A stretch of DNA of 64,000 nt from an uncultured Acidimicrobiaceae bacterium (lineage in GTDB: Bacteria; Actinomycetota; Acidimicrobiia; Spongiisociales; UBA5794). Below, one piece after another: positions 1,270 through 13,400 of the stretch. The stretch is from the NCBI GenBank assembly GCA_964416425.1, contig CAYQEC010000005.1, positions 9,328-73,327 of the forward strand. Reading direction: 5' to 3'. How positions within the stretch are numbered: position 1 is the first letter of the stretch; the number at the start of each line of letters is the position of its first letter. Both the position numbers and the translations under genes were made by a program. The notes beneath the pieces are model-generated. The model saw only the letters and a program-made list of their open reading frames with translations. It was not told the origin of the DNA and made no database searches.

Positions 1270-3315
1270 ATGCCCAACCGCCTCGCCCACGCCACCAGTC
1301 CCTACCTGCTCCAGCACGCCGCCAACCCGGTGGACTGGCACGAGTGGGGTGAGGAGGCATTCACCGAAGCGGCCCGCCGGCAGTGCCCGGTGCTGCTCTC
1401 GGTCGGCTACGCCGCCTGTCATTGGTGCCACGTGATGGCCCACGAGTCGTTCGAGGATCCTGCCACCGCCGCCCTCATGAACGAGCGGTTCGTCAATGTC
1501 AAGGTCGATCGGGAGGAACGACCCGACGTCGATCGCATCTACATGGACGCGGTCCAGGCCATGACCGGCCACGGCGGCTGGCCGATGACGGTGTTCCTCC
1601 TGCCGAGCGGCGAGCCCTTCCTCGCCGGCACCTACTTCCCGGCGGAGCCGCGCCGCGGCCTGCCGTCGTTCCGGCAGGTGCTCGAAGGCGTCGCGGCGGC
1701 GTGGGACACACAACGCCCCGAACTCGCCGGCCAGGGGCGGCGCATCGCCAAGGCCATCGCGGCGGGCCTCCCATCCGGGGAGGCGCCCCCGATCGAGGAG
1801 GCGATCGCCACCGCCGTCGAACGGCTCGGCCAGACCCATGACCCGGTCCACGGCGGCTTCGGGGGCGCCCCCAAGTTCCCGCAGGCGCCAGTGCTCGAGC
1901 TGCTGCTGCGGGTCGCGGCGCTCGACCGCCCCACCGGACTGGCCGGCGCCGCCGCCGCCCTGCTGGAGGCCACCCTCGACGGCATGGCCGCCGGCGGCAT
2001 CTACGACCACCTCGGTGGGGGGTTCGCCCGCTACTCGGTCGACGCGGCCTGGCAGATCCCCCACTTCGAGAAGATGCTCACCGACAACGCCCTGCTAGCC
2101 CGGATCTACCTCCGGGCTTCCCAGGTCACCGGCGATCCGGCCCGCCGCGCCACCTACCGGCGGGTGGCGATCGAAACCCTCGACTACCTGATGCGGGACA
2201 TGACCGATCCGCATGGCGGCCTGTCCTCGTCACAGGACGCCGACTCCGAAGGCGTCGAAGGCAAGTACTACATCTGGACGTGGGACGAGCTGGGCGAGGT
2301 GCTCGGCGACGATCAAGCGATCGTGGCCGCCCTCTACGGAGCAACACCTGCCGGAAACTTCGAAGGAGCGAACATCCTGCACCGGGCGGCGGCGCCGGAG
2401 AAGGTGGCGGCCGACCTCGGGATCACACCCGCCGCCGTGCTCGCCGTGGCGGACCGGGCTGGCGCCGCGCTGCGATCGGTCCGTTCGCGGCGGGTCCGCC
2501 CCGCCACCGACGACAAGGTCGTGGCCGCCTGGAACGGCCTGGCGTTGCGGGCCTTCGCCGAAGCCGGCGCGATCCTGCCGAGCGACCGGTACCTGGCGCA
2601 GGCGATCGGGATCGCCGAGTTCGCCACCACCATCCTGCGGCGGGCCGACGGCCGCCTGCTGCGGAGCTGGCGGCACGGCGCCGCCGGGGGGCCCGGGTTC
2701 TGCGACGACTACGGCGCCCTCGCCGTCGGTCTCTTCACGCTGTACCAGGCCACCGGCGACAAGCGATGGTTCCACGAAGGGGAGCGCCTCACCCGGGACC
2801 TGATCGACCTGTTCGCCGACGGCGACCACGGGTTCCACGCCACCGGATCGGACGCCGCTCCCCTCATCGCCCGGCCCAAGAACCTCATGGACGGCGCCAC
2901 CCCGTCGGACAACTCCCTCGCCGCCGAGGCCGTCCAGATCCTCACTGCCTATACCGGGGACGCCGCCCTCACGGGACTTCTCGACGGGATCGCCGCCGCC
3001 GCGGCGCTGCTGCTGGAACGCCACCCCACCGCGGTCGGGGGGCTGCTCGGGGTACTGGCGGTGGCGACGGAGGTCAAGGAGGTGGCGATCGTGGGCGCTG
3101 CCGCCGAACGGGAGCCCCTCACCGCGGTGCTGTGGGAGAGCTTCCGCCCCGACTGCGTGCTCGCCACCCATTCCCCGGGTGAGCCGACCCGGATCCCGCT
3201 GCTGGCGGGGAGGAACCTGCACGACGGCGCCGCAGCCGCCCATGTCTGCCGTCACTTCGCATGCCGCCTGCCGGTGACCACCCCGGAGGCGCTCCGGGCC
3301 GAGCTGGACGGTTGA
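1270..3315 (+). CDS. Thioredoxin-domain protein YyaL (DUF255 / N-acylglucosamine 2-epimerase-like)
   Basis: The 681 aa product has the DUF255 thioredoxin-like N-terminus ([13 protein letters not shown]...[19 protein letters not shown]...[14 protein letters not shown]) followed by a six-hairpin glycosidase-like domain. Confidence 0.9.
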
Positions 3316-3379: not shown

Positions 3380-4594
3380 GTGGCATACTTCAGGGCTTCC
3401 GTAAGCTATCGAACCGTGAGCGACGAAACCCCCCAAGGCATCTGCATCTTCTGCGGGACGGCCCGGCCCGTCAACGTCGCCATCTGCCCGACGTGCAAAC
3501 GCACCTGGATCGACCGGAGGCTGACCGAAACGCCGCTGGCCGCCACCCCGCCGCCGGCCCCTGAGGCCGCACCCGACGCCACCATCCCCGTCCCGCCGGA
3601 GGGCGAAGCGCTGCCGGAACCGGAACCGATCGACACGATCTCCCTCGACGAGCTGAATGCCCGGCTCGCCCGGAGCGGGGAGGCTACGCCGCCTCCTCCC
3701 CCGCCGGAGCCGGCCATCCCTGCCGCACCGAGCCCGCCGCCGCCCGCCGTGGCGCCCCCGGCGCCGCCCGGCGAGCCGTCCTTCGCCGCCGGTCCTTCCG
3801 GGCCCGGCGAGCCCCCTGAGCCACCGCCCCCGGTGGCCCGCGACCGCCGCGGGTGGTGGGTGGCTCTCGCGGTCGCCGCTGCGGTGCTCTCCCTCTACCT
3901 CATCGTCTTCGTCTTGCTGCTGAACGACGGCAACGGCGAACCGGTCGCCATCACCTCGACGACCACCACCTCGTCGACCACCACGCCGGCCACCACCACG
4001 ACCACCTCGGCGACAACGACCACCACCTCCAGCACGACCACCACCACGACGATCCCGCCCATCGACCCGGTCGGCGATCCCATCCCGCTCACCGACCTCG
4101 AGCTGGGTGCCTTCGCCCTCGGGCCGCTCGACCTCGCCACCGACTCGACCGACGCCCTCGGACGGCTCGCCGCCACCTTGGGGCAGCCGGAGGCGACGGC
4201 GGAGGCCGGCGAGGCCGACGGGCTCTGCCCCGGCACCACCGGGAGCACGTATCGCTGGAGCGGGCTCACCACGATCTTCCTCGACGTCGACGGCGGCCAG
4301 GCCCTGGTGGGATACCGGCTGGCGCCCGCCCCCGACGGTGCGGCGGCCGACACCGACCAGCTTGCGACGCTCTCGGGGCTGCGCCTCGGCCAGACGGTGG
4401 GCGACATCCGGTCGATCTACGCCAACTCGCGGGTCACCATCATCGACCACGCCGGCACGCCCCACTTCGTGCTGCAGCGCTCCAGCGACGACCGCACCCT
4501 GCTGTGGGGCCCCGTCACGTCGTCGGACGACGCCGGAATCGTCGAAGGCATCTCGTCGCCGCTCTGGTGCGACGACGGCCCCAGTCCTTCTTGA
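3380..4594 (+). CDS. Membrane-anchored protein with an N-terminal zinc ribbon and a cysteine-containing extracytoplasmic domain; paralogue A
   Basis: It starts at a GTG, with an alternative in-frame GTG at 3416. The N-terminus carries C-x2-C-x11-C-x2-C (ICIFCGTARPVNVAICPTCKRTW). This is followed by a Pro-rich linker, one TM helix (WWVALAVAAAVLSLYLIVFVLLL), a poly-Thr linker, and a C-terminal domain ending LLWGPVTSSDDAGIVEGISSPLWCDDG. That C-terminal domain is shared with the 6672..7634 gene. Confidence 0.75.
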   Translation: MAYFRASVSYRTVSDETPQGICIFCGTARPVNVAICPTCKRTWIDRRLTETPLAATPPPAPEAAPDATIPVPPEGEALPEPEPIDTISLDELNARLARSGEATPPPPPPEPAIPAAPSPPPPAVAPPAPPGEPSFAAGPSGPGEPPEPPPPVARDRRGWWVALAVAAAVLSLYLIVFVLLLNDGNGEPVAITSTTTTSSTTTPATTTTTSATTTTTSSTTTTTTIPPIDPVGDPIPLTDLELGAFALGPLDLATDSTDALGRLAATLGQPEATAEAGEADGLCPGTTGSTYRWSGLTTIFLDVDGGQALVGYRLAPAPDGAAADTDQLATLSGLRLGQTVGDIRSIYANSRVTIIDHAGTPHFVLQRSSDDRTLLWGPVTSSDDAGIVEGISSPLWCDDGPSPS

Positions 4595-4682
4595 CGACCC
4601 CACCCCAAGCGCTTCCAGCCGCACGGTTCCCGAAGCGAGATAACATTGTGCGTCGTCCGGGCTGTTCGAGGATCCTGTCTCC

Positions 4683-6611
4683 ATGAACGCGAATCACAAA
4701 ACGGCCGCTCCGCCCTCCCTGCTGGGGCGGGTGCTCACGATTGCCAACATCGGCTCGGTGATCGTCGGCATCGTGGTGTTCCTGGTGCTGGTGCGCGCCT
4801 GGAACAGCCACGTCGGCGGCCTGCTCGCCGCCCTCGTCGCCGGGTTCGCCACCGCCGTCGCCTGGGTCTTGTGGAACCGCCTCTCCGCCGGTCCCCCGCT
4901 CGCCAAGATCATCCCCGGCACCCTGCTCGGCACCATCCCCTCCACCCCCGGCCTCCCCACCCCGACTCTCACCCAGCCGGCCTCCCCCACCGCCGAGGCC
5001 TATCGCGCCGCCTCGCGCCGCCTCGAATCGGCCACCACCGGCCAGGTGGTGCTGGTCTCCAGCGCGGGGCCGGGACAGGGTGCCAGCACCGTGGCGCTCA
5101 ACCTCGCCATCGGCGCCACCCAGGAGGGCCGCCGGGTTCTTCTCGTCGACGGCGACCTCTCCACCCAGGGCCTGTCCCGGTTCGGGCACACCGGCGCCGC
5201 CCCCGGGCTCACCGACCTCGCCGAGGGAACCGCCACCCTCGTCGAGGCGTCCCGGCTGTGGCTGATCGACTCCGCCAACCGGCTTCCCTTCGTGCCTGCC
5301 GGGAGCCGTCCCGACAATCCCACCGCCCTCCAGGGAACCCGCCTCGCCGACGCGGTGGACCAGATCACCGAACACGCCGACCTCATGCTCATCAACGCTG
5401 CCCCACCCGGCTGGGACGGCGACCAGCAAACCCTCGCCACCCACGCCGACGGGACGATCCTGGTCGTCACCGAGCGGGGTGACCGCACCGCCATCGCCGA
5501 GGCGTGCCGCCGCTTCGAAGAGATGGGGGCCCCGGTCGTCGGCTACGTCGTCAACCACAGCTCCCATCACCGCGCCGCCCCCGAGCACTGGCTGCGCCGC
5601 GCCCTGAAGCGGGCCTTCGCCACCGCCTCGATCATCATCGTCGCCTACACGGCGTGGACCGGCTACCAGCTGTGGCACTCCTGGAACAGTGTCGAGCGGG
5701 ACCAGTTCGACGTCGAGACCGCCCTCGGGGTACTGCCCCCGATTCCGCCGGACCTGTTCGAGACCGCCGACCTCTCCCCGGAGACCGCCTCGGCCATCAC
5801 CGCGGTGCCCTCCGACCGGGAGTTCACCACTTTCATGATCGTCGGCAGCGACCTCGGCGGGGAACGGGCCGACGTCATCATCCTCGCCCTCTTCCCCACC
5901 AACGGCGACCCACCACTCATGGTGTCGCTGCCACGGGACCTCTACGTCGTCAACCGCTGCACCCAGGGGTTCGACCGCCTCAACGCCAACCTCGGGGGCT
6001 GCGGGGACACCGTCAACGGGCCGACCCTGCTCGCCCTCGCGGTCGAGGATTTCACCGGCATCCCCGTCGACCACTTCGCCCTCTTCGATTTCGACGGTTT
6101 CCAGCGCATCATCGACCAGGTGAGTGGGGTCGAGATCTGCGTCGACCACGACGTGCGCGACCGCAAGTCCGGCCTGGACCTGCCGGCCGGCTGCACCAAC
6201 GCCAGCGGGGAACAGGCCCTCGCCTGGGTCCGGTCCCGCCACACCCTCGAGCTGGTGAACGGCCGGTGGCGGGTCATGCCCGGGGTCAACGACCTCGCCC
6301 GCAACGAACGCCAGCAAGACGTGATCCTCGCCATGTTCGACAAGATACGGGCCTTCAAGTCGTCGAACGACCTCACCCGCACCGTGCGCAGCGTGACCGA
6401 CGCCTTCACCCTCGACAACCAGCTCGGCGTGACCGAGGCGATCCGCCTCGCTTGGGACCTCAGGAACATCGATCCGGCGACGATCGTGCGGCTCCAGGTC
6501 CCGGTGGCGGACTACCTCACCGCCCAGGGCGCGGCCGTGCTCATCCCCACCGCCTCGTTCGACAGCGTCATCGCCGAGTACTACGGGATCGCCGCCGAGG
6601 AGGCGTCCTGA
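4683..6611 (+). CDS. Fusion protein: TM - degenerate CpsD/BY-kinase-like P-loop domain - TM - LytR-CpsA-Psr (LCP) domain
   Basis: The N-terminal cytoplasmic domain aligns to the CapB/CpsD fold, but its Walker A reads GPGQGAST (Lys replaced by Ala) and its Walker B-like stretch reads LMLINAAPP (Asp replaced by Asn). The Walker A' VLLVDGDL is intact. The C-terminal half has LCP motifs: FMIVGSDLGGERADVIILALF and SLPRDLYV. Confidence 0.8.
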   Translation: MNANHKTAAPPSLLGRVLTIANIGSVIVGIVVFLVLVRAWNSHVGGLLAALVAGFATAVAWVLWNRLSAGPPLAKIIPGTLLGTIPSTPGLPTPTLTQPASPTAEAYRAASRRLESATTGQVVLVSSAGPGQGASTVALNLAIGATQEGRRVLLVDGDLSTQGLSRFGHTGAAPGLTDLAEGTATLVEASRLWLIDSANRLPFVPAGSRPDNPTALQGTRLADAVDQITEHADLMLINAAPPGWDGDQQTLATHADGTILVVTERGDRTAIAEACRRFEEMGAPVVGYVVNHSSHHRAAPEHWLRRALKRAFATASIIIVAYTAWTGYQLWHSWNSVERDQFDVETALGVLPPIPPDLFETADLSPETASAITAVPSDREFTTFMIVGSDLGGERADVIILALFPTNGDPPLMVSLPRDLYVVNRCTQGFDRLNANLGGCGDTVNGPTLLALAVEDFTGIPVDHFALFDFDGFQRIIDQVSGVEICVDHDVRDRKSGLDLPAGCTNASGEQALAWVRSRHTLELVNGRWRVMPGVNDLARNERQQDVILAMFDKIRAFKSSNDLTRTVRSVTDAFTLDNQLGVTEAIRLAWDLRNIDPATIVRLQVPVADYLTAQGAAVLIPTASFDSVIAEYYGIAAEEAS

Positions 6612-6671
6612 CCCGACCTGACATGCGATTCGGCATAAGATGGCGATTGCGGCGGAGCGTCTGCGGGGGTC

Positions 6672-7634
6672 GTGGACACCGCGAATGACGAAGAGGGAAC
6701 CGTGACGGACTACTACGACCCGAATCGACCACCTCCCGACGAGCCGTTCGACCCCTACGAGGGCCTGCTCGATCTCTCCGGGGGCGAGCCCATCCCGCCC
6801 CTCGAGGATCCGCGCCTCCCGCCCGCCGGCCCTCCCCGCTCCCCGCTCCTCACCGGCCTCATCCTGGGACTGCTGCTGGTGGTGTTGAGCATCGCCCTCT
6901 TCCAGTTCGCCCGCGGCGACGACACCGCGGCCGGGCCCACCGAGACCACGGCCCCCGGCGACACCGTCGCCGGGGACGGGGGAACCACCGTGGCGGGTAG
7001 CGAAACCACCGCGCCCGACGACGGCTCCACGACATCCTCGACGACGCTCCCGAGTTCCGGACAGCCCTACGTGGCTGCAGGCGATCCGATCCCGATCGAG
7101 GACCTGACGCTCCAGGTCGACGGCATCGGCGAGGTCAAGCTAGGTCAGCCCGCCGCCGAGGCCATCGGGCGCCTCATCGCCAGCCTCGGGGAGCCCGACT
7201 CGGACAGCGGCAACATCGTCTCCTCAGGGACCTACGGGGCGTGCACCGGAGACGCGGTGCGGATCGTCACCTGGGGACCGCTCGCCGCCGTCGTCCTCGT
7301 CGACGACGACGGCACCGAGACCTTCGCCGGCTACCGGGTCGACTGGGACATCCCCACCACGGCGGGAGGAACCCTCGCCGATTCTCCCGCCAGTGACCTC
7401 GCCACCCTCAGCGGGCTCCAGGTGGGGAATTCGGTACGGGAGCTGAAGACCATCTACAACGGCTTCAACATCGACTTCGTCGATGACCCGCAGCTCCATA
7501 CGACCTTCGAGTTGCGGGGCGCCAACACCGACAACCTGCTGCTGTGGGGCCCGGTGACCGCCGACACCGACGCCGGCATCGTCACCGGTATCTACTCTCC
7601 CAACGCCTGCGAGCACTTCTCACTGAACGGGTGA
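6672..7634 (+). CDS. Membrane-anchored protein with the same extracytoplasmic domain as 3380..4594; paralogue B
   Basis: It has an acidic, Pro-rich N-terminus, one TM helix (LLTGLILGLLLVVLSIALF), a Thr-rich linker, and a C-terminal domain with ATLSGLQVG...LLWGPVTADTDAGIVTGIYSPNACEHF. This matches paralogue A, including two conserved Cys residues. Confidence 0.75.
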   Translation: MDTANDEEGTVTDYYDPNRPPPDEPFDPYEGLLDLSGGEPIPPLEDPRLPPAGPPRSPLLTGLILGLLLVVLSIALFQFARGDDTAAGPTETTAPGDTVAGDGGTTVAGSETTAPDDGSTTSSTTLPSSGQPYVAAGDPIPIEDLTLQVDGIGEVKLGQPAAEAIGRLIASLGEPDSDSGNIVSSGTYGACTGDAVRIVTWGPLAAVVLVDDDGTETFAGYRVDWDIPTTAGGTLADSPASDLATLSGLQVGNSVRELKTIYNGFNIDFVDDPQLHTTFELRGANTDNLLLWGPVTADTDAGIVTGIYSPNACEHFSLNG

Positions 7635-7685: not shown

Positions 7686-8414
7686 ATGTGGCAGCGCACC
7701 CTGTCGGCCGCCTGGGGAGCCGCCGTCGGCTCCCTGCTCGCCCTTGGCGTCTTGGTGTTGTTCACCGGCCGCCAAGCCATCGGTTCGGTCGGAGCGGTGG
7801 TGCTGGACTACGACGCGGTCCGTGCCCGGCCCCAGTTCGCGGTGTCCAGCGGCGGGCTCTTCCTCTTGGTGGCGGGAATCGCCCTGCTCGGCGGGCTCGC
7901 CGTCGCCGCCCTCACCTACGCCCGCAGCCGAGAGCTGGATCCCACCAGCGAGCGGTTCCCGTTGCGTGCCGTGCTCCCGGTCGGTGCAGTGACCAGCCTC
8001 GTCGCCGGCTATGCCGTGTTGCGGGCCGGTCTCGGGGCGACTGCCGACATCGGCGGCGGCGTAGTCACCATCTCCGCCTTCCGCATGATCGTCGTCACCC
8101 TGCTCGCCGGTTTCGTCGCAGGCGCCGTCACCGCCGGCATCGTCGAACCCCTTGCCCGGAAGCGGGTCCTCGGCTTCGGGGGCGAGGCATGGCCGGCGGA
8201 TCGTGGCACGTTCCTGCGTGCCATGGCACGTGCGGTGGGGGCGCCGATGCTGGCCGCCATCACGATCGTGGCGCTGGCGATCGGTCTGTCCGAACTGCTG
8301 CTCGCCCTCGGCAAGGATGCCGCGGTGGCCGTCTTCGCCGTCGTGGCCGCGGTGGTGCTGGGCGGCGTTGCCCTGGTCGCCTACCGCCCCTGGGACCGAT
8401 CTAACGGCACCTGA
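7686..8414 (+). CDS. Hypothetical polytopic membrane protein (~6 TM)
   Basis: The product is hydrophobic throughout. The alternative frame 7688..8404 is Arg-rich and is rejected. Confidence 0.6.
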   Translation: MWQRTLSAAWGAAVGSLLALGVLVLFTGRQAIGSVGAVVLDYDAVRARPQFAVSSGGLFLLVAGIALLGGLAVAALTYARSRELDPTSERFPLRAVLPVGAVTSLVAGYAVLRAGLGATADIGGGVVTISAFRMIVVTLLAGFVAGAVTAGIVEPLARKRVLGFGGEAWPADRGTFLRAMARAVGAPMLAAITIVALAIGLSELLLALGKDAAVAVFAVVAAVVLGGVALVAYRPWDRSNGT

Positions 8415-8446
8415 CCGCTCGGATCGCGCCGGGGACGGTCGGTCAG
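8411..8446. terminator. Convergent stem-loop shared by the membrane-protein gene and ctaG
   Basis: CTGACCG...CGGTCAG inverted repeat lies between a + gene ending at 8414 and a - gene ending at 8443. Confidence 0.4.
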
Positions 8447-9258
8447 GAGGAGTGCACCACCGGGCGCGGCTCGGTGAACCGCTGTTCCTCATCCCACCAG
8501 CGGAAGAAGTAGACGGCGATGAAGCCCCACAGCAGCAATCCGCCGCCGATCTTCATGAGCAGGCCGCCGGCGACCTGGTCGGACAGCGCCGAGATCCCCC
8601 ACAGGCGGGGCATCGTCTCGTAGATGTGGTAGAGGGGACTCTCCCCCAGGGTGAGGAACGAGGCGGGGATGGTCGGCACCAGCGACTGGAGGAACAGGTA
8701 GCCCATGCGGGGGAACGGCTCCAGCCGGGGCAGGTCGGGGATGGGGCCGATCACCGGCCACCACATGAGGATGCCGGTGACGAACAGCGCCCCGTGGATG
8801 GCGAAGTGGGCGGCCTCGGAGGTGAGCATCAGATCGACCAGCGCCGGAGCGTGGATCAACGCCAGCACCCCGTTGAAGAGCACCAACGCAACCAGCGGCT
8901 TGGTGAGGATGCGGAGCGCCGGCAGGATCGGCTTGACCGCGAGCCGCAGCAGCCACCACGGGGTCCCGTAGAGCAGCAACGGCGGGGCAATCAGCCCGAA
9001 CGCCATGTGCTCGATCATGTGGAAAAGGAACAGGCTGTTCTCGCCGATGTCGTGGATCGGCCACGTCGACACCAGGAACAGCGACCCGACCCCGGAGTAG
9101 AAGGCGATCCGCTGCCGCCGGGTCACCACCGGCTCGCCGCGGGGGGCGTGGTCCGGGGCGAGCCGCCGGATCCCGTACTCGAACGCCAGGATCATGGCCG
9201 TCGCGACGCCGAGCACGTCGAGGTGGAGGTGGAAGCGGAGGACCTCCGACGCCGGCAT
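8443..9258 (-). CDS. ctaG: Caa3-type cytochrome c oxidase assembly factor CtaG
   Basis: The product is a polytopic membrane protein with the HMIEHMAFG motif, and it is the last gene of the cta operon. Confidence 0.8.
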   Translation of the reverse strand: MPASEVLRFHLHLDVLGVATAMILAFEYGIRRLAPDHAPRGEPVVTRRQRIAFYSGVGSLFLVSTWPIHDIGENSLFLFHMIEHMAFGLIAPPLLLYGTPWWLLRLAVKPILPALRILTKPLVALVLFNGVLALIHAPALVDLMLTSEAAHFAIHGALFVTGILMWWPVIGPIPDLPRLEPFPRMGYLFLQSLVPTIPASFLTLGESPLYHIYETMPRLWGISALSDQVAGGLLMKIGGGLLLWGFIAVYFFRWWDEEQRFTEPRPVVHSS

Positions 9259-9259
9259 G

Positions 9260-9541
9260 TCAGAGCGCCTCGAACGTCAGGAGCACGACCACGAAGAGCA
9301 GCAGCGCTCCGAGCAGACCGACGAAGAACACGTTCCGGTACAGCTTCCTGTCGAAACGGAGGTGCATGAAGAAGCCGATGACGGCGCCGAACTTGATCGC
9401 TCCCAGCCCGAGCAGCGCCGGCACCTTCACCCCGTCGAACGCGGAGACCTGGGGGATGGTGACCTCGATGGCGGTGAGGACCGCCAGGATGAGGGCGATC
9501 ATCCAGTAGACCCGGGGGGTGGGATGGGCTCGCTCGGTCAT
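9260..9541 (-). CDS. ctaF: Cytochrome c oxidase subunit IV (CtaF)
   Basis: The 93 aa two-TM product begins MTERAHPTPRVYWMIALILAVLT at the ATG at 9541. The track ORF 9260..9856 is an out-of-frame N-terminal extension. Confidence 0.8.
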   Translation of the reverse strand: MTERAHPTPRVYWMIALILAVLTAIEVTIPQVSAFDGVKVPALLGLGAIKFGAVIGFFMHLRFDRKLYRNVFFVGLLGALLLFVVVLLTFEAL

Positions 9542-9543
9542 GG

Positions 9544-10149
9544 TCACACCTGCAGCAGGTAGACGACGGTGAAGATGACGATCCAGACGATGTCGACGAA
9601 GTGCCAGTAGAGGCCCACCAGCTCGATGTTGAGGCCGCGCCGGGCGTAGATCCGGCCGTCGAGTGACAGGATGACCATGCCGAGCAGCATCAGCACCCCG
9701 ATGGCGACGTGGGCCCCGTGGAACCCGGTGAGCATGTAGAAAGCCGAGCCGAACGGGCTGGTCGACAGCTTGAGCCCGCCGTGGACGAACTCGGTGAACT
9801 CGAAGATCTGCCCGGAGAGGAACGTGATGCCGAGCAGCCCCGTGCCGGTGAGCCACACCCGGGCCTGGCGCAGGTCGCGGCGCTCATAGGCGTGGTGGGC
9901 GAGCACCATCGTCAGCGAGCTCATCAGCAGCACGAAGGAGCTGGCGGAGGTGAAGGCGAGGTTGAAGATCTCGGCGCCGGGCCCGTCACCGGTGGTGCTC
10001 CGGTAGAGCAGGAACGTCGAGATCATCGCCCCGAAGAACATGCATTCGGAGGCGAGGAAGACCCACACCGCCACCTTGCGGATCGGGATCACGTCGTGGT
10101 GTTCGGCCTCGTGGCCCGCCGTCCCGGCCGTCATCTCGCTCAGGGTCAT
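9544..10149 (-). CDS. ctaE: Cytochrome c oxidase subunit III (CtaE)
   Basis: The 201 aa product runs MTLSEMTAGTAGHEAEHHDVIP...FHGAHVAIG...YWHFVDIVWIVIF. The ATG at 10149 overlaps the ctaD stop (ATGA). Confidence 0.9.
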   Translation of the reverse strand: MTLSEMTAGTAGHEAEHHDVIPIRKVAVWVFLASECMFFGAMISTFLLYRSTTGDGPGAEIFNLAFTSASSFVLLMSSLTMVLAHHAYERRDLRQARVWLTGTGLLGITFLSGQIFEFTEFVHGGLKLSTSPFGSAFYMLTGFHGAHVAIGVLMLLGMVILSLDGRIYARRGLNIELVGLYWHFVDIVWIVIFTVVYLLQV

Positions 10150-12002
10150 GTCGCCGCCTCCCCGTCGATGGGCTCGAGGGACCAGCCGAACAGGCCCGAG
10201 ATGGTGATGAGGGCCCCGATCCAAGCCGCCACCAGCCCCGCCGGCAGGTAGACGAACCCGTAACCCATCGTCACCAGCCCGGCCGCCGCCACGATCGGGT
10301 AGAACGAGGGCGCCGGCAGGTGGATGTCGTGGTGCTCGGCGGCCGGGGCGGGGTCTTCCCGCTCTGCGATGCGGACCGCCCGCCCCTCCTCGTCGGTCGT
10401 GTACTTCTGGTGCCAGTAGTCGTCGAGCGAGGTGACATGGGGAATCTCGTCGAAGTTGTGGGGCGGCGGCGGGGACGGGATCGACCACTCGAGGGTGCGC
10501 CCGTCCCACGGGTCGGGGCCGGCGATGGCGCCGCGCCGGGCGCTGCGCACCACGTTGTAGAGGAAGATCAGGAACGAGAGCCCGATGATGAACGCCCCGA
10601 TCGAGGCGATGGCGTTCCAGAACCCCCAGCCGAGGCCCTCCGGGTAGGTGTAGGTGCGGCGCGGCATGCCGTTGAGGCCGAGGATGTGCATCGGGGCGAA
10701 GGTGAGGTTGAACCCGATCAGCATCAGCCAGAAGTGCCACAGCCCGAGCGTGCGGTTCAGCATGCGCCCGGTCCACTTCGGGAACCAGTAGTAGGCGCCG
10801 GCCACGAAACCGAAGATGGCGCCGCCGAACAGCACGTAGTGGAAGTGCCCGACGACGTAGTAGGTGTCGTGCTGCTGGGTGTCGGCCGGAACCACCGAGT
10901 GGGTCACCCCCGACAGGCCGCCGATGACGAACATGGCGATGAACCCGATGGCGAACAGCATCGGCACCTCGAACCGCACCCGTCCCCCCCAGATGGTGCC
11001 GATCCAGTTGAAGATCTTGACCCCGGTCGGCACCGCGATCATCAGCGTCGACACCCCGAACCCGGCTTCCGCCAGCGGCCCAAGGCCGGCGGTGTACATG
11101 TGGTGCACCCACACTCCGAAGCCCATGAAGCCGATGGCGATGCCGGAGAACACCACGAACGGGTATCCGAACAGCGGCTTGCGGGAGAAGGTGGGCAGGA
11201 TCTCCGAGACGATGCCCATGGCGGGCAGGATCAGCACGTACACCTCGGGATGGCCGAAGAGCCAGAACATGTGCTGCCAGAGCAGCGGGTCACCTCCCGA
11301 GGAGAAGAAGTGGGCGCCGAGGTTGCGGTCGAAGAAGAGCTGGAAGAGGCCGACGCCGAAGATCGGCAGCGAGAAGACGAGGAGGAAGGCGACCACCAGC
11401 GCCATCCAGACGAACACCGGCATCCGCAGCATGGTCATCCCGGGAGCCCGCATCGTGAAGATGGTGGCGATGAAGTTGATCGAGGCCGCGATCGAGGCGA
11501 CCCCGAGGAGCTGGGCGCCGACCGAGAAGAAGTCCATCCGCACCACCTCCCGCAGCTCGGTCGAGAGCGGGGCGTAGCCGAACCAGCCGCCGTCGGGGGC
11601 GCCGCCGAGCACGAACGACGACATCATCAGCACGATGCTGAAGGCGAACAGCCAGTAGCTGAAGGCGTTGAGGCGGGGAAAGGCCACGTCGCGGGCGCCG
11701 ATCATGATCGGCAGCAGGTAGTTCGTGAAGGCGGCGCCGATCGGCATCACCACGCCAAAGACCATGGTGAGCCCGTGCATGGTGAAGAGCTGGTTGTAGG
11801 CGTCGGCGCTGAGGAATTCCTGGTTGGGCCCGATGAGCTGGACCCGGATGAGCAGGGCCTCGAGACCGGCGATGAAGAGCGCGGCGAAGGCGGTGACGGC
11901 GTACATGATGCCGATCCGCTTGTGGTCGACCGTGGTGATCCAGCTCCAGATCCCGTTGGGACCGGTGCGGGGCAGCAGCTCCCGTTCGGCCGTCATCGTC
12001 AC
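10146..12002 (-). CDS. ctaD: Cytochrome c oxidase subunit I (CtaD) with a ~70 aa C-terminal extension containing an extra TM helix
   Basis: The product has the heme-copper oxidase subunit I signature (WLFGHPEVYVLILPAMGIVSE..., HHMYT, GHFHYVL) and a C-terminal tail HDIHLPAPSFYPIVAAAGLVTMGYGFVYL. Confidence 0.95.
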   Translation of the reverse strand: MTMTAERELLPRTGPNGIWSWITTVDHKRIGIMYAVTAFAALFIAGLEALLIRVQLIGPNQEFLSADAYNQLFTMHGLTMVFGVVMPIGAAFTNYLLPIMIGARDVAFPRLNAFSYWLFAFSIVLMMSSFVLGGAPDGGWFGYAPLSTELREVVRMDFFSVGAQLLGVASIAASINFIATIFTMRAPGMTMLRMPVFVWMALVVAFLLVFSLPIFGVGLFQLFFDRNLGAHFFSSGGDPLLWQHMFWLFGHPEVYVLILPAMGIVSEILPTFSRKPLFGYPFVVFSGIAIGFMGFGVWVHHMYTAGLGPLAEAGFGVSTLMIAVPTGVKIFNWIGTIWGGRVRFEVPMLFAIGFIAMFVIGGLSGVTHSVVPADTQQHDTYYVVGHFHYVLFGGAIFGFVAGAYYWFPKWTGRMLNRTLGLWHFWLMLIGFNLTFAPMHILGLNGMPRRTYTYPEGLGWGFWNAIASIGAFIIGLSFLIFLYNVVRSARRGAIAGPDPWDGRTLEWSIPSPPPPHNFDEIPHVTSLDDYWHQKYTTDEEGRAVRIAEREDPAPAAEHHDIHLPAPSFYPIVAAAGLVTMGYGFVYLPAGLVAAWIGALITISGLFGWSLEPIDGEAAT

Positions 12003-12024
12003 ACCGGATCACCCTCTCTCGTCG

Positions 12025-13182
12025 TCATTGCCAGCCCTCCAGCATCGCCGTCAGTCCTTCGATCTGTGCCTGGTCGAGCCCGAAGTTCGGCATGCCGAGC
12101 ACCCGGCCCGTGGTGAGGTCGTTGCGGTCGGGGTTCATCGGCTTCACCGCCGACGGGTCGGCTAGCCAGGTGGCGACGTGCTCGGGGGTGTTGTCGAAGA
12201 CGCTCCCGGCGAAGGTGGTGCGGCTCCCGAAGTGGGTGAGATCGGGGGCGAGGGAGGAGACGAAGGTCTCGCCGCGGACGTCGACGTGACGCTCAACGCC
12301 GACGACGCTCACGGTGCCGTCCTGAAGCATGGTGGCGCGGTGGCAGGCGGTGCAGGTGGTCGAGAACACCTCCCAGCCGGCGGCGGCGGGGTCGCCGGTC
12401 GGGACCGTGCCCGGCGTGAGCTGCTGGTCGGCCCAGGCCTGGAAGCCAGCGTCGGTCTCGACGAAGACCTTGAAGCGCATGTCGGCGTGGGAGAGGCCGC
12501 AGAACTCGGCGCACTGGCCGGGAAGCGGCTCCCCGGGCGGGGTGGGATCGTCGGCTTCGAGGGTGAGGTGGGAGATGCGGCCCGGGACGAGGTCCCGCTT
12601 CCCCGCCAGTGACGGCACCCAGAAGCTGTGGATGACGTCGGCCGAGGTCATCGTGAGGTTCACCTTGCGTCCGGCCGGGATGTGGAGCTCGTTGGCGGTG
12701 ACGAGGCTGCGCCCGTCGTCGCTCGTCAGATCGGGGTACGCGAACTCCCACCACCACTGGTGGCCGGTGACCTTCACCTGGACGACGTCGGGCCCCACGG
12801 GGATCTCGTGGATCTCGAAGATCCCCTTGATGATGGGAACGCCGATGCTGGCCAGGATGACGACCGGGATGATCGTCCACAGGATCTCGAGGCGGGTGTT
12901 GCCGTGGAGCTGGACCGGCTCACGGTCGTCGCCCTTGCGGGCCCGGTAGCGCCACAGCGAGTAGAGCAGGCCGACCTGGACGACCGTGAAGACGATGGCG
13001 GCGATGATGAAGACGAGTTGCCACAGGTTGTCGATGTCCCGTGACATCGGGCCCTTCGGGTTGAGCGAGGTCTGGGGCCCGGAGCCCGAACACGAAGCGA
13101 GCAGCAGTGCCGCCGCCACCAGCACGAGGGGTTGCCGGAGCCGGCGGGCGAGGGGCTTCGGGTGTAGGCGGTGCGATCTCAC
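12025..13182 (-). CDS. ctaC: Cytochrome c oxidase subunit II with a fused C-terminal cytochrome c domain (caa3-type); lipoprotein signal
   Basis: The CuA site is FCGLSHADMRF and the C-terminal heme motif is CTACH. The likely start is the GTG at 13182, giving a lipobox LLLASCSG; the track ORF extends to an ATG at 13266. Confidence 0.9.
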   Translation of the reverse strand: MRSHRLHPKPLARRLRQPLVLVAAALLLASCSGSGPQTSLNPKGPMSRDIDNLWQLVFIIAAIVFTVVQVGLLYSLWRYRARKGDDREPVQLHGNTRLEILWTIIPVVILASIGVPIIKGIFEIHEIPVGPDVVQVKVTGHQWWWEFAYPDLTSDDGRSLVTANELHIPAGRKVNLTMTSADVIHSFWVPSLAGKRDLVPGRISHLTLEADDPTPPGEPLPGQCAEFCGLSHADMRFKVFVETDAGFQAWADQQLTPGTVPTGDPAAAGWEVFSTTCTACHRATMLQDGTVSVVGVERHVDVRGETFVSSLAPDLTHFGSRTTFAGSVFDNTPEHVATWLADPSAVKPMNPDRNDLTTGRVLGMPNFGLDQAQIEGLTAMLEGWQ

Positions 13183-13400
13183 TTCATCGGCATGGGTCGG
13201 CGGACATACCCCGGGGGCCCGGGGCGTTGGGCACTGTAGTGGTGCCTTAGTCGCAAAGTCACGCACTTTTTGTCTAACTTTTTACATTTGCCGTCTATTC
13301 CGCCTGAATCCAGGGACCTGCGATACTCGGACGGCGCACCGGCGTCGGCCTCTTCGACGGAGCAGGTGCCCCCGCCTGCCACTGTGGAAACGAGCCCGCC
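13183..13400. promoter_or_regulatory. Divergent promoter region between ctaC and the TauE gene
   Basis: This is the only locally AT-richer stretch (ttagtcgcaaagtcacgcactttttgtctaactttttacatttgcc) and it lies between divergent starts. Confidence 0.5.

Follow-up and report, generated by a model that had tools for sequence, protein, structure and literature searches.

What do two related membrane proteins do on either side of a gene for a putative cell-envelope ligase? The question is raised by a window of 64,000 nucleotides (the whole stretch of DNA analysed here) from an uncultured Acidimicrobiaceae bacterium, positions 9,328 to 73,327 of the forward strand of contig CAYQEC010000005.1 (GenBank assembly GCA_964416425.1). 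In this window the genes for two paralogues, A (3380-4594, + strand, 404 aa) and B (6672-7634, + strand, 320 aa), flank a gene (4683-6611, + strand, 642 aa) whose product joins a bacterial tyrosine kinase (BY-kinase)-like domain to a LytR-CpsA-Psr (LCP) domain. Enzymes of the LCP family join teichoic acids, capsules and arabinogalactan to peptidoglycan, and to our knowledge little is understood of how they are regulated and positioned; a partner domain that is conserved and dedicated to them would, if real, offer a new route into LCP regulation. The reading that we favour, and for which we see roughly an even chance, is that A and B serve the LCP ligase encoded between them as dedicated non-catalytic partners, either accessory or regulatory.

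Two paralogues with a shared C-terminal domain

The open reading frames of A and B were both confirmed at these coordinates on the + strand. An earlier inspection of the letters without database searches (hereafter the sequence-only reading) had claimed that the two proteins share a C-terminal domain, and the pairwise alignment is indeed significant: BLASTP aligns residues 232-398 of A with 137-314 of B at 37% identity over 178 aa (E = 4e-27), within a domain that spans about residues 225-404 in A and 130-320 in B. One of the motifs quoted for this domain, ATLSGL..G..V.....IY, is found as given, and the other is found with three variable residues instead of two (LLWGPVT...DAGIV.GI.SP). Its two conserved Cys, C283 and C397 in A and C191 and C313 in B, had also been picked out; an alignment of 25 diverse members shows them as invariant or conserved to at least 90%, and the pair probably forms a disulfide. 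A and B can thus be taken, from their sequences, as ancient paralogues.

Hydropathy profiles show that A and B each have a single strong hydrophobic segment (163-181 and 59-77, respectively), with basic, Arg-rich residues before it and acidic residues after it. Because the basic flank precedes the transmembrane (TM) segment and the acidic flank trails it, both A and B are predicted to be type II single-pass membrane proteins with the N-terminus inside and the C-terminus outside. The TM helix is followed in each case, as had been proposed, by a Thr-rich stalk (A 184-231, 50% Thr; B 82-136, rich in Thr, Gly and Asp). Stalk length and sequence vary among family members, and strong conservation is found in the folded domain and in the cytoplasmic motifs.

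The cytoplasmic motifs are of two kinds. In A, four Cys (C22, C25, C36 and C39) make up a zinc ribbon of about 20 residues, and these Cys, together with the W-I-D that comes afterwards, reach at least 95% conservation across 25 orthologues; the ribbon had been recognized before, with a middle spacing of x11 that has to be corrected to C-x2-C-x10-C-x2-C. Its only ribbon-like matches in Pfam, DZR_2 (E = 0.14) and DUF7479 (E = 0.28), lie far below the cut-off. A cytoplasmic linker (residues 44-155) with 34% Pro separates the ribbon from the TM helix. The length of this linker (window 3424-3900) is very variable, the orthologues ranging from 319 to 722 aa in total, and gene callers often place the start of A orthologues inside or downstream of the ribbon; for A itself the gene-caller start is 3416 (392 aa) rather than 3380, which leaves the ribbon unaffected. 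B lacks the zinc ribbon and instead bears a conserved cytoplasmic N-terminal peptide, DPY..L.DL.G.EP.P.LEDP...PPRSPLLTGL, of which the ending PPRSPLLTGL is invariant and leads into the TM helix.

A new sequence family with a predicted yfeY-like fold

The shared domain had been described as one of no known family, and sequence searches agree. Neither full-length A nor B has a match in Pfam-A at E <= 1 (hmmscan), the 25 diverse domain sequences have none in Pfam-A at E <= 10, including DUF1131 (PF06572), DUF4309 and CAP_assoc_N, and A and B have no match in NCBIfam. Searches of PDB chain sequences with A, B and the family profile (the profile at E <= 10) likewise found nothing relevant. A search of a 90%-clustered database with the B domain gave 315 matches, all unnamed or annotated as hypothetical and, where labelled, from Acidimicrobiia. 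The profile of the 25 diverse domains, run against 1.84 billion clusters at 50% identity, detected 687 representatives (E <= 0.001), a family of moderate size, and in the full-length matches listed in this search the alignment ends within a few residues of the C-terminus. A word-indexed homologue search with the A domain missed A's own cluster. At a minimum, the family merits a Pfam/DUF entry.

AlphaFold models of the two domains, built from different alignments, reach a predicted local distance difference test score (pLDDT) of 93.0 for B and 93.8 for A, and both consist of two successive units, each of one helix and three strands. A comparison of the two halves by hhalign, as a check for an internal duplication, is not significant (E = 0.023, probability 2%), with the register of the helix, the strands and WGP lined up. 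By three-dimensional similarity of the models to YfeY, CAP_assoc_N and DUF4309, the domain is placed in the yfeY-like/BLIP-like fold group of ECOD. Among its relatives by fold are BLIP (1jtg_B), a putative BLIP (3d4e) and TsiN, which we take from its name to be a type VI secretion system (T6SS) immunity protein. The ECOD curators have joined the yfeY-like and BLIP-like groups, and inhibitor functions are recorded for the BLIP and PepSY-like families (PMC11836899). What is new here is thus the sequence family, whereas the yfeY-like/BLIP-like fold shown by the models is an extracytoplasmic one already known.

The domain is also found at the C-terminus of surface proteins with several CarboxypepD_reg/prealbumin-like repeats and a length of about 900-1000 aa (P0322 and P0331), so the family extends beyond the short TM-stalk-domain form.

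A degenerate BY-kinase-like domain on the LCP ligase

The protein encoded between A and B has two TM helices at its N-terminus, a BY-kinase-like P-loop domain at about residues 95-300, a membrane anchor at about 312-335 and an extracytoplasmic LCP domain at 395-556 with four conserved Cys. LCP membership is clear from PF03816 (E = 9.3e-30, 104 bits against a cut-off of 24.6) and TIGR00350 (82.9 bits against a cut-off of 62.3). The kinase-like domain is homologous to BY-kinase P-loop domains, with matches to TIGR01007 (E = 3.4e-22) and EpsG (E = 5.9e-22) that fall short of the curated cut-offs, and also to Wzc.

The motifs of an active BY-kinase are not intact in this domain. The Walker A motif reads GQGAST in the window, and G-[AT]-[ST] stands in place of G-K-[ST] in all 24 of 24 orthologues; the canonical Arg of Walker A' (D-x-D-x-R) is present in no variant; and Walker B has Asp in most orthologues and Asn in this genome and eight others. 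The canonical BY-kinase relatives that were retrieved show GEGK[ST] and DADLR[KR]P. Moreover, the LCP domain follows the kinase-like domain, so a free C-terminal Tyr cluster is absent. Since Ala or Thr takes the place of the Walker A Lys throughout the orthologues and the Walker A' Arg is missing, the label of a pseudo-kinase-LCP fusion given by the sequence-only reading is supported by the motifs and seems fair, and nucleotide binding by the domain is possible.

Among the matches listed, the closest non-fusion relatives of the kinase-like domain are Wzz-kinase proteins, at 38% identity. A search with the kinase-like region returned at least two partial close relatives (P0379 and P0380) and is silent on how the fusion is distributed; across the loci, the fusion turned up in no clade other than the one with two domain paralogues. 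The words "kinase" and "ATPase" are absent from a phylogenetic study of LCP proteins (PMC2632651), and a limited literature search found no description of the A/B family or of the fusion.

Cys426, Cys440, Cys486 and Cys504 of the LCP domain are conserved across the orthologues, which suggests two disulfides. This pattern would suit oxidative folding of exported proteins in this organism and a disulfide in the domains of A and B.

Conserved linkage between the domain genes and LCP genes

We counted linkage in about 100 Acidimicrobiia loci from metagenome-assembled genomes (MAGs) and metagenomes; the source organisms shown for these loci are Acidimicrobiia, a class that is abundant and little studied, or loosely labelled actinobacterial MAGs. 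Of these, 27 species-representative loci came from a pattern search of a genome collection, with identity in the B domain down to 45%; all are MAGs, assigned to Acidimicrobiia wherever the record names a class. A further 66 loci, from metagenomes, were found with an alignment of sister-clade sequences.

Within contig reach, all 27 species-level loci have the order of the window, that is, a DUF255 gene, A, the BY-kinase-like/LCP fusion, B and a gene for a polytopic membrane protein (here 6-TM), followed by a divergent cytochrome oxidase (cox) cluster. In the 66 sister-clade loci the typical order is DUF255, an LCP gene without the kinase domain, one domain protein, 6-TM and cox. The copy number of the domain gene follows the architecture of the ligase: the fusion is accompanied by two domain genes in 29 loci, and an LCP domain only is accompanied by one in 42. 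Changes in domain copy number thus go hand in hand with the acquisition of a dead kinase domain by the ligase.

In 48 of the 53 loci that could be assessed, the upstream 1.2 kb before the domain gene contains the end of an LCP gene. The co-occurrence of the two is conserved well beyond this genome. It is also evident that the association can persist when the flanks change. Two loci, L033 (from a TARA sample) and L036, keep A, the fusion and B without the DUF255 gene and the cox cluster, and in another (L032) a family member lies in a cluster with Wzx, GT1, GT4 and LCP genes. From these gene orders, the association between the LCP gene and the domain protein is the tightest and most portable one in the neighbourhood.

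In one contig (L039, 5380-8724) a 1114-aa protein, P0336, combines a REC domain, a GGDEF-like domain and a GT2 synthase with a C4 ribbon, TM helix, Thr-rich stalk and A-type domain. It is known from this contig only and may be a frameshift artefact that merges two genes.

Neighbouring genes and the proposed four-gene unit

The DNA around the locus is high in GC (about 70%). As had been stated, A, the fusion, B and 6-TM lie on the same strand with short gaps, here 88, 60 and 51 nt, respectively. A site scan found no terminator-like or sigma-70-like sites between the + strand genes; since terminator-like sites are lacking there, these genes are compatible with an operon, which is not proof of one.

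The sequence-only reading proposed that these four genes form a dedicated envelope glycopolymer-attachment or sensing unit. For A, the fusion and B the conserved linkage agrees with this proposal, and for 6-TM (7686-8414, + strand, 242 aa) membership is doubtful. The protein, earlier counted at six TM helices, has 5-6, five hydrophobic segments being clear and the sixth being weaker; no match to it was found in NCBIfam or Pfam. Its gene adjoins a domain gene in 34 of 47 loci and is followed by CtaG in 32 of 36. In three long contigs (L063, L066 and L082) the order DUF255, LCP gene and domain gene is kept and neither 6-TM nor CtaG was detected downstream within the locus, and 6-TM is absent or displaced where the LCP-domain pair lacks a nearby cox cluster. 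With its strong tie to CtaG and its frequent absence beside the LCP-domain pair, 6-TM is the least secure member of the unit, and it goes with the cox/CtaG cluster at least as tightly as with the LCP module. The 6-TM protein may be associated with the oxidase rather than part of the LCP module. In the window the divergent cluster is of caa3 type and contains CtaG, COX4, COX3, COX1 and COX2 (8443-13266, - strand).

Upstream of A lies the gene for a DUF255/Thioredox_DsbH protein (1270-3315, + strand, 681 aa). No signal peptide is evident in it by eye, so the protein is probably cytoplasmic. The gene is a syntenic neighbour of the module, usually directly upstream of it, and would be at best a candidate part; we treat it as a neighbour because marine loci keep A, the LCP gene and B without it.

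Possible roles of A and B

If A and B are partners of the ligase, their domains would be compact and two-lobed, probably locked by a disulfide and held off the membrane by Thr-rich, possibly O-glycosylated stalks. Outside the cell, these domains would bind the LCP catalytic domain, or the peptidoglycan or glycopolymer substrate, and so position or gate ligation. Inside, the zinc ribbon of A and the juxtamembrane peptide of B would contact the degenerate BY-kinase-like domain of the fusion. The linkage of domain and LCP genes and the appearance of the second paralogue together with a cytoplasmic kinase-like domain on the ligase point to such an arrangement, as do the conserved cytoplasmic parts, namely the ribbon Cys in A and PPRSPLLTGL in B. 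By analogy, the presence of extracytoplasmic protein binders and inhibitors in the fold superfamily is consistent with it as well. The partnership, if true, would give the yfeY-like fold (YfeY, DUF4309, CAP_assoc_N) its first functional context.

Several observations weigh against a dedicated partnership with the ligase. The pairing of two paralogues with the kinase-like fusion has a sole exception (L104, 1273-5237), in which an A-like ribbon protein, an inserted 575-aa open reading frame, an LCP gene without the kinase domain and a B-like gene occur together, so that A is not strictly dependent on the kinase-like domain; the insert, judged by eye, resembles a sulfate adenylyltransferase/adenosine 5'-phosphosulfate (APS) kinase. 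In at least eight loci the domain gene has no LCP gene beside it. They include L035, L071, L057, L061, L067 and L073, where the DUF255 gene is directly upstream of the domain gene and, in the three with contigs long enough (L035, L057 and L071), 6-TM and CtaG come after it; the GT2 fusion of L039 also belongs here. A member of a distant subfamily, with about 30% identity and the ending G.GCGE, lies in L037 (7548-8807) directly after the Peptidase_S24/S26 gene of a Ni superoxide dismutase (NiSOD) maturation protease, next to the NiSOD gene and with no LCP gene nearby. Because the loci come from a single class and often have flanks in common, much of the linkage may be inherited gene order. As to the fold, a Foldseek search of the PDB with the domain model gave nothing significant, the closest structural relatives (YfeY, DUF4309 and CAP_assoc_N) are themselves uncharacterised, and a binder or inhibitor role would be extrapolated from the more distant BLIP, PepSY and BamE relatives.

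The same observations can be read in other ways. A and B could be tethered to the membrane to inhibit or regulate a different enzyme outside the cytoplasm, such as a protease, a peptidoglycan hydrolase or a protein like a beta-lactamase/PBP, their place beside the LCP gene being inherited gene order. BLIP, PepSY and T6SS immunity proteins work in this way, 1jtg_B, 3d4e and TsiN are among the fold relatives, inhibitor functions are noted by ECOD in the fold group, and there are family members without an adjacent LCP gene (L035, L071 and L037) or at the end of CarboxypepD_reg surface proteins (P0322 and P0331). However, an LCP gene is directly upstream in 48 of 53 loci, including those with differing flanks (L033 and L036) and the glycopolymer cluster of L032, the copy number follows LCP architecture, and the neighbourhood contains no conserved hydrolase or protease gene; we regard this possibility as rather unlikely. 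It is improbable, though conceivable, that A and B are instead substrates of the LCP enzyme, either through glycosylation of their Thr-rich stalks or as glycoproteins anchored by it, as with Actinomyces oris LcpA acting on GspA. Such stalks are present in A (184-231), in B (82-136) and in other members inspected; however, Thr-rich linkers are generic in actinobacterial exported proteins, conservation lies in the domain and the cytoplasmic motifs while the stalk is variable, and, unlike in GspA, no sortase signal was noticed on reading A and B. In favour of this reading, PMC6381275 reports an LCP enzyme through which a surface protein anchored to the wall becomes glycosylated.

The genes on the flanks and the zinc ribbon raise two further alternatives. 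The order in L035, L057, L061, L067, L071 and L073, where the domain gene comes straight after DUF255 with no LCP gene between, could mean that A and B serve with DUF255, 6-TM and the cytochrome oxidase assembly cluster, for example in extracytoplasmic thiol or metal handling, and that the LCP gene is a bystander; the conserved Cys pair of the domain would fit. We consider this very improbable, given that L033, L036 and L032 keep the link between domain and LCP gene without DUF255 or cox, that L063, L066 and L082 keep DUF255, the LCP gene and the domain gene where no 6-TM or CtaG was detected downstream, that the invariant residues of the domain include no metal or redox motif (His, Met or CxxxC), and that the DUF255 protein is probably cytoplasmic. 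A metal-chaperone role was rejected for its want of such a motif. The sequence-only reading had likened the combination of a cytoplasmic zinc motif, one TM helix and an extracytoplasmic domain in A to transmembrane signalling or anti-sigma modules, in which case A would be a zinc-dependent anti-sigma factor or a transmembrane signal transducer and B a co-sensor; related loci do carry a gene of the sigma-70 family on the opposite strand, a few kb upstream. The marks of zinc-dependent anti-sigma factors (ZAS, zf-HC2) are the motif H-x3-C-x2-C within an N-terminal anti-sigma domain and a nearby gene, usually co-transcribed, for an extracytoplasmic function (ECF) sigma factor. In A, by contrast, the ribbon is of C4 type and not an H-x3-C-x2-C in a helical domain, no zf-HC2 or other anti-sigma Pfam match is seen at E <= 1, B has no ribbon, and no ECF sigma gene is adjacent, the nearby sigma factor having regions 1.2 to 4 and lying beyond DUF255. 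The likeness to these modules is thus not supported, and a role of this kind is highly improbable.

A bolder form of the partnership between A, B and the ligase would make the trio an undescribed transmembrane control device, in which the dead kinase, the ribbon protein and the peptide-bearing paralogue read a cytoplasmic state (e.g., nucleotide or precursor supply) and the YfeY-like ectodomains gate the LCP site. We offer this only tentatively and think it unlikely as it stands; equally speculative is its corollary that the plain LCP gene with one domain protein in the sister clades represents the ancestral two-component form. If true, it would be the first function for any yfeY-like domain.

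Comparison with known systems

Known proteins resemble A and B in two separate respects, the fold of the domain and the presumed logic of the complex. YfeY of E. coli (DUF1131, PDB 2qzb) shares 10-15% identity with the domain, which exceeds the aligned core by about 60 residues and carries the conserved Cys pair. In place of the lipid anchor of YfeY, the domains in A and B have an N-terminal TM helix and a Thr-rich stalk as their tether. YfeY being itself uncharacterised, this likeness speaks to the fold and is silent on function. DUF4309 (B. subtilis YjgB, 4ygt) and CAP_assoc_N (4ifa, 4h0a) are also in the yfeY-like group of ECOD and have no sequence-level match to A or B; the partner in those proteins is a CAP/SCP domain, in contrast to the TM helix, stalk and zinc ribbon of the A/B proteins. 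A link of DUF4309 or CAP_assoc_N to LCP genes did not turn up, with no search aimed at one. BLIP, PepSY and SmpA_OmlA (BamE, OsmE) have weak structural scores against the domain and no sequence similarity to it.

The closest parallel in logic would be the CpsA/LcpC-CapA/CpsC-CapB/CpsD systems of Firmicutes, to which a transmembrane complex of A, B and the fusion would be functionally analogous. In S. aureus, CapA1, a transmembrane activator of a BY-kinase, enhances ligation by LcpC in vitro (PMC6441080). The logic that we propose to be common to both is an ectodomain with a cytoplasmic peptide that joins a BY-kinase-type ATPase and an LCP enzyme. The components themselves differ. CapA and CpsC are of Wzz type with two TM helices, whereas A and B have one each and a different fold; CapB and CpsD differ from the fusion, in which the kinase-like domain is joined to the LCP domain and lacks both the Walker A Lys and a free C-terminal Tyr cluster. 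Homology of A and B to Wzz/CpsC was considered and rejected, as each has one TM helix and neither matches PF02706. Because A and B have neither the Wzz domain nor its two-TM topology, the likeness to CapA/CpsC is one of analogy and not of homology. The trio of A, fusion and B, known so far only from MAG and metagenome sequences that are Acidimicrobiia where labelled, is thus a variant of the theme of LCP enzyme, BY-kinase and activator.

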